DNA from: Nitrososphaeraceae archaeon
GTDB lineage: Archaea; Thermoproteota; Nitrososphaeria; Nitrososphaerales; Nitrososphaeraceae
Direction: 5' to 3'
Length of the DNA: 32,041 bases
Assembly (NCBI GenBank): GCA_044870765.1
Contig: JBIOZG010000021.1
Coordinates: 1 to 32,041, forward strand
Shown here: in pieces, positions 5,596-21,740 of the stretch
How the letters are laid out: each line of letters starts with the position of its first letter
How positions within the stretch are numbered: the first letter of the stretch is position 1
The notes under the pieces: generated by a model
Database searches by the model: none
Told to the model about the DNA's origin: nothing
Seen by the model: the letters and a program-made list of their open reading frames with translations, nothing else
Position numbers and translations under genes: made by a program

Positions 5596-5663
5596 GCAAC
5601 TAATTGGAGGAATTATTGGATTGAGTGATGAACAAGACCACACTCAATAATCCCATCCGCTGC
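5596..5663 (-). ncRNA. Candidate structured ncRNA, hairpin family copy C
   Basis: Shares a 19-nt identical block (gattgagtgatgaacaaga) with 21514-21532; folds on the minus strand with a G-U pair in the basal stem. Confidence 0.5.
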
Positions 5664-5914
5664 CTGTGTCTAAGCAAACCAATCATGATGGAAAGGTTCG
5701 AGTTGCCCTGTCCGATTTTCAATTGACTTTTGTAAAAAATTAACAAACTATAATTGTATTTATTTAATATTTAATTTTTAATATCCACTAACATCCAACA
5801 GCAACTCTTCTAGTTAATAATTAGGACATTGCGAAGAAGAAAGGATTGATTGACAATCATCTGGAGGTCTATTTGCGCTAGACTTATTACGTTGGAACTG
5901 TGAGCAAATACTGA

Positions 5915-9281: not shown

Positions 9282-9365
9282 ATTATTATTATAGACCACG
9301 AGGTATATCAATCCTTTCTAATCACATGAGAAAACAAAAACAGAATTCAAAAAAATTATATTTCA

Positions 9366-9974
9366 TCAATCAATTCTTATAGATTTACTTTTTGCCTTAT
9401 CCTTTGACTTCTTGTTCAAAGTTATTTCAAGCAGTCCATTGATAAATGTGGATTTTACACTATCAATATCTACTTCAGCGGGTAAATCGATAAGCTCATG
9501 ATACTTCCTTTTCGGGTCTTCTGTTTTTATATCCACCTGACTCTCATTCGCATCTATCTTAATTTGTTCCTTAAAAACGCCTGGTAGTTCTACTGTAACT
9601 TTTACTTCTTTATCAGTAGTAGAGACCTCGGACAATGGCTGTCGTTCTGGCAAGATATTTGGTCTTGACCCTGCTCTCATTCGAGGCTTGACGTTTCCGA
9701 ACTCCCTTACGATGGGCTTCCCATCGGCCCCTATTGTGGTTGTAGAACCATACACTAATGGACCAATTTCCCTAACTTTCGCGCCGTCTTCTGTCACATA
9801 TTCTCTTATCAAATCTTTAGGTACTTTATTCTCGATATCTCTAAGATTTTCTTCAAATTCTCTTTCCATTTCTCTTCTCATTTCGTCAAATCCTTCAAAT
9901 AGACTGTTCCTTCGTCCAAAAGGCCTACTACCTGAGAAAAATCGATTAAACCAGTCGAAAGGCTCGATACTCAT
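9366..9974 (-). CDS. hsp20: Archaeal small heat-shock protein Hsp20
   Basis: GPLVYG...GKPIVREFGNVKP, VELPGV and FINGLLEITL alpha-crystallin-domain motifs. Confidence 0.95.
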   Translation of the reverse strand: MSIEPFDWFNRFFSGSRPFGRRNSLFEGFDEMRREMEREFEENLRDIENKVPKDLIREYVTEDGAKVREIGPLVYGSTTTIGADGKPIVREFGNVKPRMRAGSRPNILPERQPLSEVSTTDKEVKVTVELPGVFKEQIKIDANESQVDIKTEDPKRKYHELIDLPAEVDIDSVKSTFINGLLEITLNKKSKDKAKSKSIRID

Positions 9975-10629
9975 GGTAATTTATAACCATCATTATATTT
10001 AAAAATTAAATTTTTACTTTAAGATAAAAGGACGCTAATTATGGCAGAAAAAGTAAGAGTAATTTTTTTATAATATTTTTATGGTATAAGTATGACTATT
10101 CACACTGATGGGAGGGCTTTTTCTATTGGTGTTATGTATGTGGACGAAATTTTCGTCTGCAGTTGTTCCCTCCTGTCAGGTTTTAACTTTCTTATAATTT
10201 ATTGGCAATATCATTATCACGAACGTACTGAAGGCATCATACGTTCCCTGGTGGAACTATTTTCGTCCGTTATCGCGTACGGCTCTAGTTCCACCAGAGT
10301 AACTTTTTAAAACAAAAAGAATTATCATATGATATTAAGAAAATGAGTAAATCATTGGAAGTCAAAGACGTGACAGGCAATACACAAAAAAGTTTTGAAC
10401 TATTCAGAGACAAACTCATTTGATAATTTGTTCAAAGTTAAGACAGGAAACATTGGTCCAGGGTCTTATAGGTGGAACCACGGGGGAGACTATTCTAGTT
10501 CAACTAAACAGAAAAGACCAAGCTGGAAGAATCTCTACAAAATAAAATTACTTTGGTCCTTCAATACAACATAGTAATTAAGGCTTAGTCTAAAGCTGTT
10601 AAATATGAAGATAAGCATAAACTATTACC

Positions 10630-10809
10630 ATGACGAAATTTCGAGAGGAATCAAAAGACCCGATGTCACCTGAGAAAATAGCTGCACATGAACCAACGGC
10701 AGTAAGAAGAAATGCTAACGACCAGGAAATCGCTCAGGGCGGAAGGACAGGTGCTGAAACTCCCGAAGCAAAAGAGAAACTTAGAAGAAGCGGAATGACA
10801 AAACTGTAA
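10630..10809 (+). CDS. 59-aa hydrophilic hypothetical protein
   Basis: Hand translation MTKFREESKDPMSPEKIAAHEPTAVRRNANDQEIAQGGRTGAETPEAKEKLRRSGMTKL; TTAAAT about 25 nt upstream and a T-run downstream. Confidence 0.75.
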   Translation: MTKFREESKDPMSPEKIAAHEPTAVRRNANDQEIAQGGRTGAETPEAKEKLRRSGMTKL

Positions 10810-11059
10810 CCACCCGAAACTCGTCTATTTTTTTTTCAATTATTCAAATACTAAAACAAAAGTCTAATCAAACTAAACTAGGATAGATGAAACCTTTCCC
10901 AAAGGGCCTTGACCTTCTGAGTCGGGGCCATTGCGGAAGCTCCCATCAGCTCCTTAACCTTCTAATGCGTTCTTTGTCACTTTCTACTACTCAAAAATCT
11001 CGTTACCTTACACCAGAATAATTATTAATTGCTCCATGCAAAATATAGCAGCCAAACAC

Positions 11060-11126
11060 AGCAGCTGATGGGGCTCGGTTGTTTCTTGTTCATTCAACGG
11101 GCTTGCCTTCAAACCCATCACTTGCT
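11060..11126 (+). ncRNA. Candidate structured ncRNA, hairpin family copy A
   Basis: agcagctgatggg/cccatcacttgct stem, gttg/caac upper stem, loop tttcttgttcatt; TTATTAAT about 30 nt upstream. Confidence 0.55.
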
Positions 11127-11214
11127 AACTATTGTTACTTTAATAAGAGTTTCTGATGTGATTACCTTCTAATAAAGTCGATTTTAATGTTACTCTAAGT
11201 GAGTTCATTGCAGT

Positions 11215-11571
11215 TTAGAGGCCTTGTAATAATGTAAATATCTTTATTTCTATTCCACTTACTTTTGCATATTGTAAAAGTTCTGATGATGGATTGCCAT
11301 ATATTGTCAACGAACTAGGTGAGCCAAATTTTTTAAATAGTGCAAGCAACGGTTCACGAATGTTGGATTGATGCCTTAGAACAGCCTTTGAGCTCTGGTA
11401 CTTTTCGCGAATTTCACACTCAGTCTTATCGCTATTAAGAAACCAATCATATTGAATAGTTTCCGTATCTTTCTCTTTTGCGTGTTTTAAACACTCAGCA
11501 GCATGTTGGTTGAATTCCTCCAGCATACCTTTGGGAATTCTAAACTTGGCACTGACTTGTATCTCTGACAT
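11215..11571 (-). CDS. Antibiotic biosynthesis monooxygenase (ABM) domain / putative quinol monooxygenase
   Basis: AKFRIPKG..EEF...KEKD..TIQYDWF...CEIREKY.SS.AV..H ferredoxin-like ABM pattern. Confidence 0.85.
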   Translation of the reverse strand: MSEIQVSAKFRIPKGMLEEFNQHAAECLKHAKEKDTETIQYDWFLNSDKTECEIREKYQSSKAVLRHQSNIREPLLALFKKFGSPSSLTIYGNPSSELLQYAKVSGIEIKIFTLLQGL

Positions 11572-11730
11572 AGGTTCACCAATAATACCACGATTTAATT
11601 AAGTCTCTGATTGAGTGGTCTTAGATTATCTGCGTATTCTATTTGTTAGACCTCCTTTGACATCCTTTAAGAAGATTCTCTTATTCTATATTACACGAAT
11701 GTTGAATGCCACTCGAAAACTTGGGCCCAG

Positions 11731-11767
11731 AATTTGTGTCAATAACAATTCACATCCCCTTGGGCCC
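11731..11767 (+). repeat. Dispersed 37-bp repeat, copy 1 (copy 2 at 15275-15311)
   Basis: aatttgtgtcaataacaattcacatccccttgggccc vs aattcgtgtcaataacaattcacttccacttgggccc, 34/37 identical. Confidence 0.9.
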
Positions 11768-12058
11768 AATTTGATTACGACGCTTAAATGTTGGCCAACT
11801 GACAAAGAGTTGGGGGAAACATTGCTAGTCCGGTTAGCAAACTATGGTATATTTCTTGTTCCGGAAGGCGAAGTCGAGTGTTGGCTCAAGTTCTTGAATG
11901 TTTCTGGCCACGGTTCGGATTGGTTAGTAACGATATTTTCAAAAATTGGACAAAATGAAGATGATTCTGATTACATAAAACCAATCTCTGATAATGTTTG
12001 GAAATTCCTAGAAACCATATCCGAATGGATTCAAGATGCGAATAGACTAAGTACATGA
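11768..12058 (+). pseudogene. C-terminal fragment resembling OLD-family / ATP-dependent nucleases
   Basis: LANYGIFLVPEGEVECWLK...GHGSDWLVTIFSKIG...YIKP...VWKF resembles C-termini of such nucleases (recognised from memory, not searched); no ATPase domain upstream. Confidence 0.45.
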
Positions 12059-12404
12059 CAAACACGGCCGATCTAAAGATGGATGTAAATAAAATAAGAA
12101 TTCTTTACTTTCGTCCCTTAATAGGGCATTATTTGCAGTTTCATAATCTCCCGGCGTTTTACTTGAATTTTGCAGAATAATCAACTATAATTGTACTTAA
12201 TGTATTAAATCGCAATATTGTCAATCAAAAATATAGGGTAAATTGGTTGGTTGCAATCAAGTAGAGGTAATAGCGAAATAATGAATCAAAGTTTTTAATA
12301 TGAAAGATGATATTATTATTCGATAATCTGTCTAGATCCCTGGGACAAAAACTAAGTGCTAATGGAAGTAAGACTTATGTAGTTTTGCTAACATTCCAAG
12401 CGTA

Positions 12405-15726: not shown

Positions 15727-16065
15727 ATGAACAAGAAACTATTAGTGAATAGGATGTTCCTATTGGCATCATTTTTAACCATAATGCTAGGCGCCTCAAT
15801 TGTTGCAGCGAATGGTCACGTGTTTGCGGCTAAAAATATCTGGGATGATGATGACACTATGGAGGAACTTGTCAAAGATATTGACAATGGTAAAGATGAT
15901 GACAATTCGATGAATTGGCACGATTTCAAAAATTCAAAAATCTTCAAACAAGAAGATCTTGAAACACAAGAGTGTATAAAAAATAGACAGGAACTTTCAA
16001 ATAATCTCGCAGACTATGAAGTTCTACGATGTTTTGAAGATTCAGATTACGCATACGACAAGTGA
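15727..16065 (+). CDS. Small secreted acidic protein
   Basis: MNKK + hydrophobic core + VFA-A signal peptide; two-Cys acidic domain shared with 12405-13370. Confidence 0.85.
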   Translation: MNKKLLVNRMFLLASFLTIMLGASIVAANGHVFAAKNIWDDDDTMEELVKDIDNGKDDDNSMNWHDFKNSKIFKQEDLETQECIKNRQELSNNLADYEVLRCFEDSDYAYDK

Positions 16066-16390: not shown

Positions 16391-16548
16391 CTTATTAAAT
16401 TTTAAACCTTATTCATCTTGCAAATCGACATCTCTTCATTGAAACTGGTGGGGGAATCGAGTTTCAAACAGCCCACCAGTTTTACATCGAATGGTTTTCT
16501 ATTAGCGCTGTAATATTTTCAACCCTTGATTATTTTTTATAACATGAT

Positions 16549-19338: not shown

Positions 19339-19853
19339 TATCAGAATTGCATCTTCAGTTAAGGACGAATTCTAATTTTACTTCAATTCTTTACCAGATT
19401 TAGAACTTAGAAGTAATTGATTCTCTAGATGGATCGCATCAATTAAAATACTAAAAACATGTGACGATATATTAGATCACTCTAATTAGATATGAAAAGA
19501 AAAATAATTAAAATTCAAATGATATCGCCAATAGTAAATTACGCATAAATCAATTTCTGGAATTATAAAGGCATTGGGAACCGGTGTGATTACCGGCGTT
19601 CAGACGATATTCAAATGTGAAAGGTTGATCACATTTGGAATGATGATCATCTCTGGAATTGTAGTGTTGCTGTAGTTAAGACCATATATCTAAATGTATC
19701 ACTGGCAATGCTTGTTTATTTGTAAAACTGAAATTGAAGGAAAAGATCATGTATTGAACTATAGCCGTTATTAAAATAAAGCCTAAATCCTTATGACTTT
19801 TTTTTATTTTTTAATTCTCATAAATTTATTTTAGAGTTAGTAACGAGAAACGA

Positions 19854-20836: not shown

Positions 20837-21187
20837 TTACATAATAAAAAAAAACAAAGACAACGATTTTTTAAAATTCGCGTAGTATTAGCCCTCGGAC
20901 TGTCACTTGTAGCTGACCTTCTTGATTATGTGGCAGCACCAATATTTGGAGTACCAATAATAGGTGACGTATTTGATGTTATTGTATCGGGCTTGTTGTT
21001 TTCGATAACTAGAAGTAAAGTCTTACTTATAATGAATCTAGCCGAGTTTATTCCATTTCTTGGTGACTTTCTACCAGTGTATACTATTTCTACCTTAATG
21101 TGGATACTTAGAGAGCAGGAAGAAGAAAATAAACTCGATCTACTGAAACGCGTCGCAAGGTTACTTTCAAATAAAAGTACAAGATAA
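20837..21187 (+). CDS. Small multi-TM membrane protein; start uncertain
   Basis: Frame open from 20822: ...KIRVVLALGLSLVADLLDYVAAPIFGVPIIGDVFD...AEFIPFLGDFLPVYT; first canonical start is GTG 20930, inside the hydrophobic region. Confidence 0.65.
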   Translation, partial: LHNKKKQRQRFFKIRVVLALGLSLVADLLDYVAAPIFGVPIIGDVFDVIVSGLLFSITRSKVLLIMNLAEFIPFLGDFLPVYTISTLMWILREQEEENKLDLLKRVARLLSNKSTR

Positions 21188-21490
21188 TTAAATTGAACAC
21201 AGGAAAAATTTTATATGTTGCCAGTAGAAATTAATTTAAACAATAATTCGATACATTGCACACTATACTAACTTACAGTAAACGATCTGTACGAATTCCA
21301 TACGAATTCCACCGTGCTTAATGGAATTGTGACGATTAGAAAAAGGCTTCCGTGTCACACCAGGCCAAAAAATTAATCGAATTCTTTTATTTAATGATTG
21401 AAGTGTTCTTACATCCGAAAATAAATTATGATCAGAAGACACGTCTTATATGAAATTAATTTCATCTCTTCCAATTGGTCTTTTAAATTG

Positions 21491-21558
21491 GACAACTGAT
21501 GGGATTTTGGGCCGATTGAGTGATGAACAAGAAACAATCAAGCACCCCATCAGTTGTT
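21491..21558 (-). ncRNA. Candidate structured ncRNA, hairpin family copy B
   Basis: Perfect 12-bp stem acaactgatggg (21492-21503) / cccatcagttgt (21546-21557); gattg/caatc upper stem; TTTATA on the minus strand at about 21593-21598. Confidence 0.55.
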
Positions 21559-21740
21559 TCTGGTTGCGTTAAAAAGTTGTTCGCAAACAAAGTATAAAAA
21601 TACTGTAGTTACAATCTTCTATAAGATTCATTTCAGGGACTTTTTATCTACCTATCGGCCATTGCTATCTAACACATTATAACACTATATCGTACTTTGT
21701 AATGCCACCTTTCTTATAATATCAGTGGTACCCACAATTA

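Follow-up and report, generated by a model that had tools for sequence, protein, structure and literature searches.

A predicted genus-restricted family of hairpin small RNAs in ammonia-oxidizing archaea and its candidate mRNA target

Two described small RNAs (sRNAs) come closest in function to the elements considered here, a set of intergenic hairpins first seen in a 32,041-nt stretch of DNA (the window) from a Nitrososphaeraceae archaeon (GenBank assembly GCA_044870765.1, contig JBIOZG010000021.1). According to the part of the published account at hand, LhrC1-5 of Listeria monocytogenes is an sRNA in five copies, whose loop motifs bind the mRNA of a cell-surface protein and impede its translation while the sRNA rearranges (PMC4132741). 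In Methanosarcina mazei, again within the part of the source at hand, sRNA162 masks a ribosome-binding site in trans by means of an unstructured linker and also has a cis-encoded mRNA target (PMC3510493).

An earlier reading of the window, made without database searches (the sequence-only reading), had proposed that three hairpins in it, copies A, B, and C, belong to a multi-copy family of independently transcribed, structured sRNAs outside any known class. That proposal is supported by the lack of a match in Rfam, by covariation, by a strand-specific bias of G-U pairs, by a TATA-like box at a set distance before most copies, and by three loci that are syntenic between species. The elements are probably transcribed structured sRNA genes. 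The fuller account, in which they are transcribed independently and act as antisense RNAs on the mRNA of a secreted protein, has in our judgment about an even chance of being right. The hairpins would then make up a new sRNA family, restricted to a single archaeal genus and lying within a larger set of hairpins that have a closing stem in common.

Structure, strand, and distribution of the hairpins

The window is a contig (C21) of a 2.02-Mb assembly in 59 contigs (G000) that is 96.65% complete and encodes archaeal AmoA; the nearest match to the assembly's thermosome, at 80% identity, is in a Nitrososphaeraceae metagenome-assembled genome. Copies A, B, and C stand at the coordinates and on the strands given by the sequence-only reading (Table 1), and when folded they have the basal stem, the dissimilar yet paired upper stems, and the apical TCTTGTTCAT that it described. 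Each is a single long hairpin, more stable on the predicted strand than on the opposite strand. The folding energies (with z relative to shuffles) are -22.6 kcal/mol (z -2.61) against -19.4 (z -1.44) for copy A, -26.6 (z -3.89) against -23.2 (z -2.03) for copy B, and -28.3 (z -4.28) against -19.4 (z -2.46) for copy C. That they belong to no known class holds in the comparison with Rfam 15, which gave no match at gathering score over the whole window and none at E <= 10 over 10950-11250; over 9950-12100 there was a single match, at chance level and outside the element (19 bits to HIV_GSL3, whose gathering score is 42). ARAGORN found no tRNA in the window.

The three copies are real, but the family is far bigger than three. 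The exact loop 10-mer occurs 27 times in the assembly, both strands counted (7 of the 27 within hairpins of the family type), and an nhmmer profile gave 8 copies at E <= 3.2e-13, with weaker ones further down. A covariance model (R1) was built from 11 copies (alignment A4) with the structure written by hand, the MAFFT alignments A2 and A3 being too poor. The search with R1, which the sequence-only reading had suggested, turned up further copies: 21 matches at E <= 1 in the assembly, four of them the opposite strand of a place already counted, hence 17 distinct places. The upper stem is missing in copies F, K, and M. Elsewhere in the genus, R1 matched 22 of 24 other genomes with 1-31 matches each (a tally that includes the unpublished genome G020), and it gave no match in 16 genomes that represent 16 other families of the order. 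A model rebuilt from 104 copies (R2) matched 18 of 21 genus genomes in a second draw and, among 129 genomes representing 17 other genera of the family, a single one (G123), which has 6% contamination. These figures come from samples; among the genomes searched, the hairpin family was not found elsewhere. Within the genus, genomes of 2.7-3.7 Mb have 0-3 matches and those of about 2 Mb have 4-31.

For the assessment of the structure, 99 stretches supplied 104 matches at E <= 1e-5 (102 distinct copies), with the unpublished locus L044 excluded. Paired cells make up 87.9% in the 102 copies, in contrast to 83.2 +/- 0.4 in shuffles (none of 500 reached the observed value) and at most 41.3% in slid registers, although an alignment that was fitted to the model, and of copies that are kin, makes the shuffle control overstate the significance. 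Covariation, whose absence would have told against an RNA, is thus present beyond both controls. Changes on both sides are seen at 13 of 18 pairs. Pair 7/96, flanked by invariant neighbors, is GU in 43 copies, GC in 32, AU in 27, and anything else in none; it is never A-C. Over all pairs there are 209 G-U or U-G cells and 38 A-C or C-A cells (16 of the 38 at a single doubtful pair), which upholds, across 102 copies, the earlier remark that G-U pairs favor one orientation. Since G-U exceeds A-C, the folded molecule is the predicted strand, as RNA or, in principle, as single-stranded DNA. All 104 matches fall on one strand of their place, and where looser thresholds give a match on both strands, the other strand is about 35-42 bits behind.

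Upstream of copies A and B, the TATA-like boxes reported earlier do exist, and the block around the box of copy B (TTTTTATACTTTGTTG) is kept in the orthologous loci L029-L034. Over the family, counted from where the hairpin begins, 84 of 103 copies have a TATA-like hexamer that starts between -50 and -33. The corresponding figure is 10-19 of 103 for four control windows and 29 of 103 for the reverse strand. Taken alone, the promoter block TTWAWNNWWTGTWG is not enriched (51 matches vs 46 when the motif is reversed). In 61 of 104 copies, the last 16 nt ahead of the hairpin include the leader motif A(A/C)ACA or ACACA, compared with 10 of 104 on the reverse strand. Archaeal promoters have their box centered about 26 nt before the start of transcription, and given this usual spacing, transcription would start 10-15 nt before the hairpin. 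Similarity between genomes takes in more than the hairpin of copy A: relatives match window positions 11054-11157 (query 1755-1858) at 83-88% DNA identity. Copies of the D type (L001:2960-3008; L035, L042, L045-L047, L050, and L056) have an extra copy of the 3' arm (CCCACCAGTTG or CCCATCAGTTG) in the stretch that separates the TATA-like box from the leader. This additional arm might pair with the 5' arm in a transcript, or it might be a site at the level of DNA.

Some of the loci are old. An 85-aa gene and a TPR gene flank copy B both in the assembly and in six other genomes, the TPR protein being only 52-73% identical, and copies D (between a CHRD gene and the seryl-tRNA synthetase gene) and H (at a DEAD helicase gene) are syntenic with a counterpart in one other genome apiece. 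The unit most similar to a given copy is in another genome in 91 of 104 cases. One similarity cluster holds 16 copies from 13 genomes, with a maximum of 2 per genome; a second, of 39 copies and likewise from 13 genomes, reaches 10 in a single genome, which shows that expansion within genomes occurs too. The family is one of old paralogues, vertically inherited within one genus of ammonia-oxidizing Nitrososphaeraceae-like archaea. Their neighbors have no family in common, judging from the 31 open reading frames (ORFs) of the window and 35 ORFs beside the other copies (17 places in all).

A candidate mRNA target

The loop of the family, UCUUGUUCAU, is complementary to AUGAACAAGA, and 84 of 104 copies have UCUUGUUC, which is located in the loop. 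The assembly contains the exact 13-mer ATGAACAAGAAAC at three sites other than the elements, and two of these sites are the start codons of paralogous genes, one at C2:67267 and the other in the window (15727-16065). The two genes are 75% identical and encode proteins of about 110 aa with an N-terminal hydrophobic segment; the product of the window gene has no Pfam or NCBIfam family, and its nearest Atlas cluster is a "hypothetical protein" of Nitrososphaerota (score 0.85). When the assembly is searched beyond the elements themselves, the longest exact antisense run of each of four copies (20 nt for copy I, 19 for D, 18 for A, 15 for B) falls on the start codon of C2:67267, the run of copy A being a perfect match to C2:67266. 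Only one ORF of at least 60 aa has ATGAACAAGA at its first ATG. An antisense run of at least 15 nt is present in 53 of 104 copies, and the full 18 nt in 22.

The mRNA side is conserved as well. Of 24 genus orthologues of C2:67267 (proteins 62-77% identical), 21 start with the identical 18 nt, and the three variant sites are all A-to-G changes that keep a G-U pair. Codons 2-5 are the only invariant run of three or more codons among 95 usable columns, and they include the minor codons AAC (0.30) and AAG (0.35). On the side of the sRNA, the part that pairs with the target consists of the loop and the 5' strand of the upper stem, which suggests that the loop kisses the target first and the stem then opens. 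The C2:67267-type mRNA could be the true target of the family, a candidate put forward with some hesitation. Other matches were set aside or lead elsewhere. A 17-nt antisense match of copy G, inside a long coding sequence (C31:15639), is at about the level of chance across 17 sRNAs. Extended homology between the 5' region of the gene and the reverse-complemented element seemed plausible to the eye and was then rejected: a profile alignment and a flank-shuffle test both stay within a core of 18-22 nt (the core of E and J was not located in the control). Six viral contigs contain the 18-mer and none has the hairpin; the model aligns to them over positions 14-49 only, at 18.6-19.6 bits.

These features can be brought together in a model. 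Each element would be a small RNA gene, its promoter being of the archaeal TATA type and placed about 40 nt before the hairpin. The transcript is predicted to open with a short single-stranded leader, (Y)UAAACACA, and to continue as a hairpin of 55-70 nt. The constant parts of the hairpin are its apical loop (UUUCUUGUUCAU) and its closing stem (CAACUGRUGGG / CCCAYCAGUUG); the middle stem and an internal bulge on the 3' side vary between copies. The loop would serve as an antisense seed, kissing the first 12 nt (AUGAACAAGAAA) of the mRNA for the secreted protein of about 110 aa, and pairing might then grow to as much as 18-20 bp by taking in the 5' strand of the upper stem. With a duplex over the start codon, either the initiation of translation would be blocked or the stability of the mRNA would change.

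A number of observations weigh against this model, in addition to the caveat on the pair counts given above. Copy C has no TATA-like box at the usual distance. The nearest motif of the kind, TTATAGTTTGTTA, resembles the TTTATA..TTTGTTG block found before other copies, and on the basis of this resemblance it is a candidate promoter. Runs of T downstream of the hairpins are weakly enriched (four or more T within 60 nt in 62 of 104 copies vs 39 of 104 on the reverse strand). Matches to the 13-mer with at most one mismatch are not enriched in number, 14 against 4-16 for shuffled words, and the energies of the duplexes are unremarkable, the best z being -3.8 (in a reduced ranking whose random background probably included the target). 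One or two targets for 4-31 sRNA genes is not parsimonious. Three genomes (G003, G004, and G006) have copies of the hairpin, yet no such target gene was found in them, and in both G004 and G006 one of the copies sampled has an antisense run of the full 18 nt. The run is 13 nt or shorter in 51 of 104 copies. Moreover, the other hairpin families with the same closing stem, described in the next section, have no antisense site above the 14-15 nt expected by chance (one match of 21 nt is a nearby direct repeat). Finally, the 5' ends of genes can be constrained for other reasons.

Hairpins with the same closing stem, and other explanations

The closing stem is not confined to hairpins with the conserved loop. 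The pattern CTGRTGG-N15-75-CCAYCAG is found at 28 places in the assembly, compared with 3 and 3 for half-reversed controls, and a stricter 8-bp stem pattern at 4-23 places in 12 of 14 genus genomes and at 1-2 places in 4 of 106 genomes from other genera, its backward control giving 0 in all genomes but one. The interiors of these hairpins form several families that are conserved across species. Two such hairpins, of a second and a third family (Table 1), precede copy A in the same intergenic region, in tandem within 10054-10344, each after a TATA-like box. The block 10054-10204 is a dispersed repeat in the genus; so is the third-family hairpin, which has a paralogue (C55:29652-29795) with wobble and compensatory changes. 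A short hairpin further on in the window (16445-16479) fits the pattern and gives a weak match to R1 on both strands, 29.4 and 27.3 bits.

The shared closing stem may reflect common descent, or it may reflect a common partner or processing step. Perhaps the leader and the closing stem (CUGRUGGG / CCCAYCAG) are a common handle for a protein of the genus, and the interior is an exchangeable guide, the whole amounting to a programmable RNA-guided system. This is a speculation with little probability behind it. Were it true, each genome would have dozens of guide genes, all under promoters of their own. The most expanded class of guide would be the UCUUGUUCAU family, aimed at the 5' end of one mRNA.

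One may ask whether the elements are genes at all. The sequence-only reading had named as its alternative a DNA element akin to miniature inverted-repeat transposable elements (MITEs), to repetitive extragenic palindromes (REPs), or to attC sites. The arms of a MITE- or REP-like repeat would be terminal inverted repeats or a hairpin recognized by a transposase, and the repeat would have spread by transposition. One would then expect conserved arms around variable interiors, as are seen, and copy numbers that differ between species (here 0-31). Contig ends lie near many copies, and one cluster of three copies inside 1 kb (L005, G000:C59:20026-21031) is about 1.6 kb from a gene of the phage-integrase family (C59:22637-23719). 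In addition, in 10 of 10 relatives the orthologue of the 158-aa gene next to copy C has no hairpin beside it; homology stops about 35 nt from the gene, so that no clean empty site can be aligned there. No target-site duplication, however, is visible in 46 flank pairs, and the unit is asymmetric, with the promoter-like block and leader reaching about 50 nt past the 5' arm and no inverted counterpart downstream. At pair 7/96, A in the left arm meets C in the right arm in 0 of 102 copies, when about 8 would be expected if the arms were independent. Inverted repeats acting as double-stranded DNA are unlikely, since they would show neither this absence nor the excess of G-U cells. The synteny of orthologous copies and the predominance of nearest neighbors in other genomes also tell against transposition, as does the lack of a Y1 (IS200/RAYT) transposase (PF01797): 0 matches in the nearly complete assembly by a search that was positive in 6 of 14 control genomes. 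A search for sequencing runs that contain the window returned DNA runs from soil, wetland, and rhizosphere and no RNA run. Contigs from four of the DNA runs bridge copy A in all four, and none has a joint that skips a hairpin; one contig of the X7 run joins 21174 to 21469, so that the spacer downstream of copy B is gone and the hairpin kept, which is uninformative on mobility. As to integrons, there is no attC array at any of the 17 places (no search was aimed at an integron integrase), and the copies in the window lie on both strands, 5-10 kb apart, amid unrelated genes. The alternative is weakened to the point where a mobile repeat seems improbable.

If the elements are sRNA genes, the RNA may be real and the loop may nonetheless be something other than a seed: a protein-binding or structural determinant of a decoy, a scaffold, or a processing substrate, the 18-nt match being due to shared ancestry or to chance. 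This is the most serious competitor of the antisense model, though a good deal less than probable. A single closing stem on hairpins with unrelated interiors points to a common partner or to processing rather than to specificity by base pairing, and the other hairpin families, with no long antisense sites, and the two genomes that keep copies with no detected target gene (G004 and G006) fit it as well. Nevertheless, the antisense match falls exactly on a start codon, and it is limited to the core with dissimilar flanks, so simple shared ancestry is disfavored; the mRNA side is invariant at synonymous sites except for changes compatible with G-U; and no candidate protein partner was identified. 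Alternatively, the hairpins might be cis-acting parts of mRNAs, that is, switches in 5' untranslated regions, RNA thermometers, or terminators, a role that would suit the stress genes nearby (Hsp20, Usp, thermosome), which are abundant in the window. An ORF does follow on the same strand 173 nt downstream of copy C and 189 nt downstream of copy E. But copies A, B, and D face convergent genes or have no gene on the same strand within about 0.5-1.2 kb, the neighbors at the 17 places are of no common family, and most copies have a TATA-like box of their own, all of which makes a cis-acting role very unlikely. Less credible still, to the point of being almost negligible, is a short peptide encoded on the reverse strand. 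An ORF of 12-32 codons (ATG AAC AAG..., MNK...) does open there in A, B, C, and several other copies, but its frame is not kept: the conserved CCCATCAG is read in different frames in A and B, owing to single-base indels. In diverged copies the ATG becomes ACG, ATA, or GTG, one copy stops after 6 codons, and the G-U asymmetry places the selected structure on the other strand. An ORF on the forward strand, from the AUG or GUG of the 5' arm, was rejected as well, the conserved loop lying in different frames in B and E.

Table 1. Hairpins, associated signals, and candidate target gene in the window (R1, covariance model; z, relative to shuffles)
Feature	Position	Strand	Basis or remark
Copy C hairpin, weakest basal stem, loop UCUUGUUCAU	5596..5663	-	R1 50.0 bits
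Promoter-like motif TTATAGTTTGTTA	5741..5753	-	80-90 nt upstream of copy C; nearest such motif
Second-family hairpin, closing stem CUGAUGGGAGGG / CCCUCCUGUCAG, own TATA-like box	10105..10179	+	10096-10182 folds at -30.5 kcal/mol, z -3.79
Third-family hairpin, closing stem CUGGUGGAACUA / UAGUUCCACCAG	10248..10297	+ (strand not settled)	z -6.1 on both strands
TATA-like box of copy A (AATTATTAAT)	11020..11029	+	33-42 nt before hairpin; consensus match only
Predicted 5' leader of copy A, includes AAACAC	11047..11059	+	Putative start of transcription
Copy A hairpin: basal stem, upper stem, loop UUUCUUGUUCAU	11060..11126	+	R1 58.7 bits, E 6.9e-10
Copy A 3' tail, conserved with hairpin in other genomes	11127..11157	+	DNA similarity in relatives
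Gene for 112-aa predicted secreted protein	15727..16065	+	First 13 nt ATGAACAAGAAAC, exact complement of family loop
Short hairpin, family closing stem CUGGUGGG / CCCACCAG, lacking the loop motif	16445..16479		-19.9 kcal/mol, z -4.16
Copy B hairpin	21491..21558	-	R1 73.4 bits, vs 30.9 on the other strand
TATA-like box of copy B (TTTTTATAC)	21592..21600	-	Sequence reading

The surroundings of copy A are a mosaic of repeated genes and short elements. The Hsp20 gene (9366-9974, in block 9326-10051) has a second copy, 92% identical, at G000:C4:29473-30175, and a gene for a 118-aa ABM-like protein (11215-11571, in block 11211-11637) is multi-copy across the genus. Between them, a block of about 290 nt (10559-10849) is repeated at 75-81% identity in many genus genomes; it contains an ORF of 59 codons (10630-10809, MTKFREESKDP...), shorter than the length cut-off applied to ORFs here, that may encode a small stress-type protein. 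At 11722-11796, inside a nominal ORF (11615-12058), are two overlapping stretches of 48 nt, 91-94% identical to sites in several genomes and to G000:C41:417-464, that hold the repeated palindromic word TTGGGCCCA. Elsewhere in the assembly, a segment of about 430 bp with two divergent copies from the three-copy cluster on C59 is duplicated at C28:20420-20788, and a different hairpin at G000:C15:56760-56840, with arms TAGAAGGC / GCCTTCTA and UUUCUUGUUCAU in its loop, may be a degenerate relative. Contigs from wetland DNA runs differ from the window at two places: 19339-19834 (about 490 nt, beside a Usp gene) is swapped for 52-60 other letters, and 294 nt (21174-21469) downstream of copy B are omitted. 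Both are indels at the level of strains.

Comparison with known RNA and DNA elements

What the hairpins offer is a testable set of about 4-30 putative sRNA genes per genome in an uncultured soil genus of ammonia-oxidizing archaea, with a defined structure, strand, and promoter position and with a candidate target. A literature search for sRNAs of Nitrososphaera, of Thaumarchaeota, and of ammonia-oxidizing archaea brought up, in the parts of the sources at hand, nothing on such a family and no regulatory RNAs of ammonia-oxidizing archaea. If transcribed, the hairpins would to our knowledge be among the largest paralogous sRNA families in archaea. Confirmation of transcription would make them a natural case of start-codon masking, and the covariance models would be ready for the annotation of soil metagenomes and metatranscriptomes.

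The guide RNAs familiar from archaea do not accommodate the hairpins. Box C/D sRNAs have a C box (RUGAUGA) near the 5' end and a D box (CUGA) near the 3' end, which together form a kink-turn (K-turn). Here the 5' arm, fully paired with the 3' arm, has CUGAUGG in only 27 of 102 copies and CUGGUGG in the other 75, and there is no CUGA at a fixed place downstream. Box H/ACA sRNAs have an ACA (ANA) box 3' of the lower stem, a K-turn or K-loop with G-A pairs, and a two-sided pocket for pseudouridylation. The hairpins have the consensus U-U-A-A-U-U after the stem, an ACA motif 5' of the hairpin, and a loop (UUUCUUGUUCAU) without GA, and in contrast to the two-sided pocket, their internal loop is mainly one-sided, on the 3' strand.

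The elements have a superficial likeness to MITEs (such as the Correia elements of Neisseria) and to REPs in being short, dispersed, and intergenic, with conserved inverted arms and a variable copy number. They differ in being asymmetric units with a promoter-like block, a strand-specific G-U bias, and synteny, with no duplications seen at the ends and no Y1 transposase found in the assembly.

Among RNAs that act by base pairing, the kissing RNAs of plasmid copy control and of type I toxin-antitoxin systems are encoded opposite or beside their targets. As in those systems, a stem-loop would start pairing by its loop at the 5' end of the target mRNA and the duplex would then extend; unlike in those systems, the best target is on another contig, and there is no small hydrophobic peptide of the toxin kind. 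With sRNA162, as far as its published account at hand goes, the hairpins would share the proposed action of an archaeal sRNA, the repression of translation by masking the initiation region of a distant mRNA. They would differ from it in having the seed in an apical loop, in belonging to a large gene family, and in sharing their sequence-conserved closing stem with other hairpin families. sRNA162, for its part, is said to be a single-copy gene. LhrC, compared likewise by the part of its account at hand, is unrelated to the hairpins in sequence and structure and belongs to a different domain of life. LhrC recognizes its targets by short CU-rich sites, whereas the putative seed here covers 12-18 nt over a start codon, and the five copies of LhrC contrast with 17 places in this assembly and up to 31 matches in others. 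What the two would have in common is several paralogous sRNA genes per genome, each with its own (here putative) promoter, and a conserved single-stranded motif in the loop.

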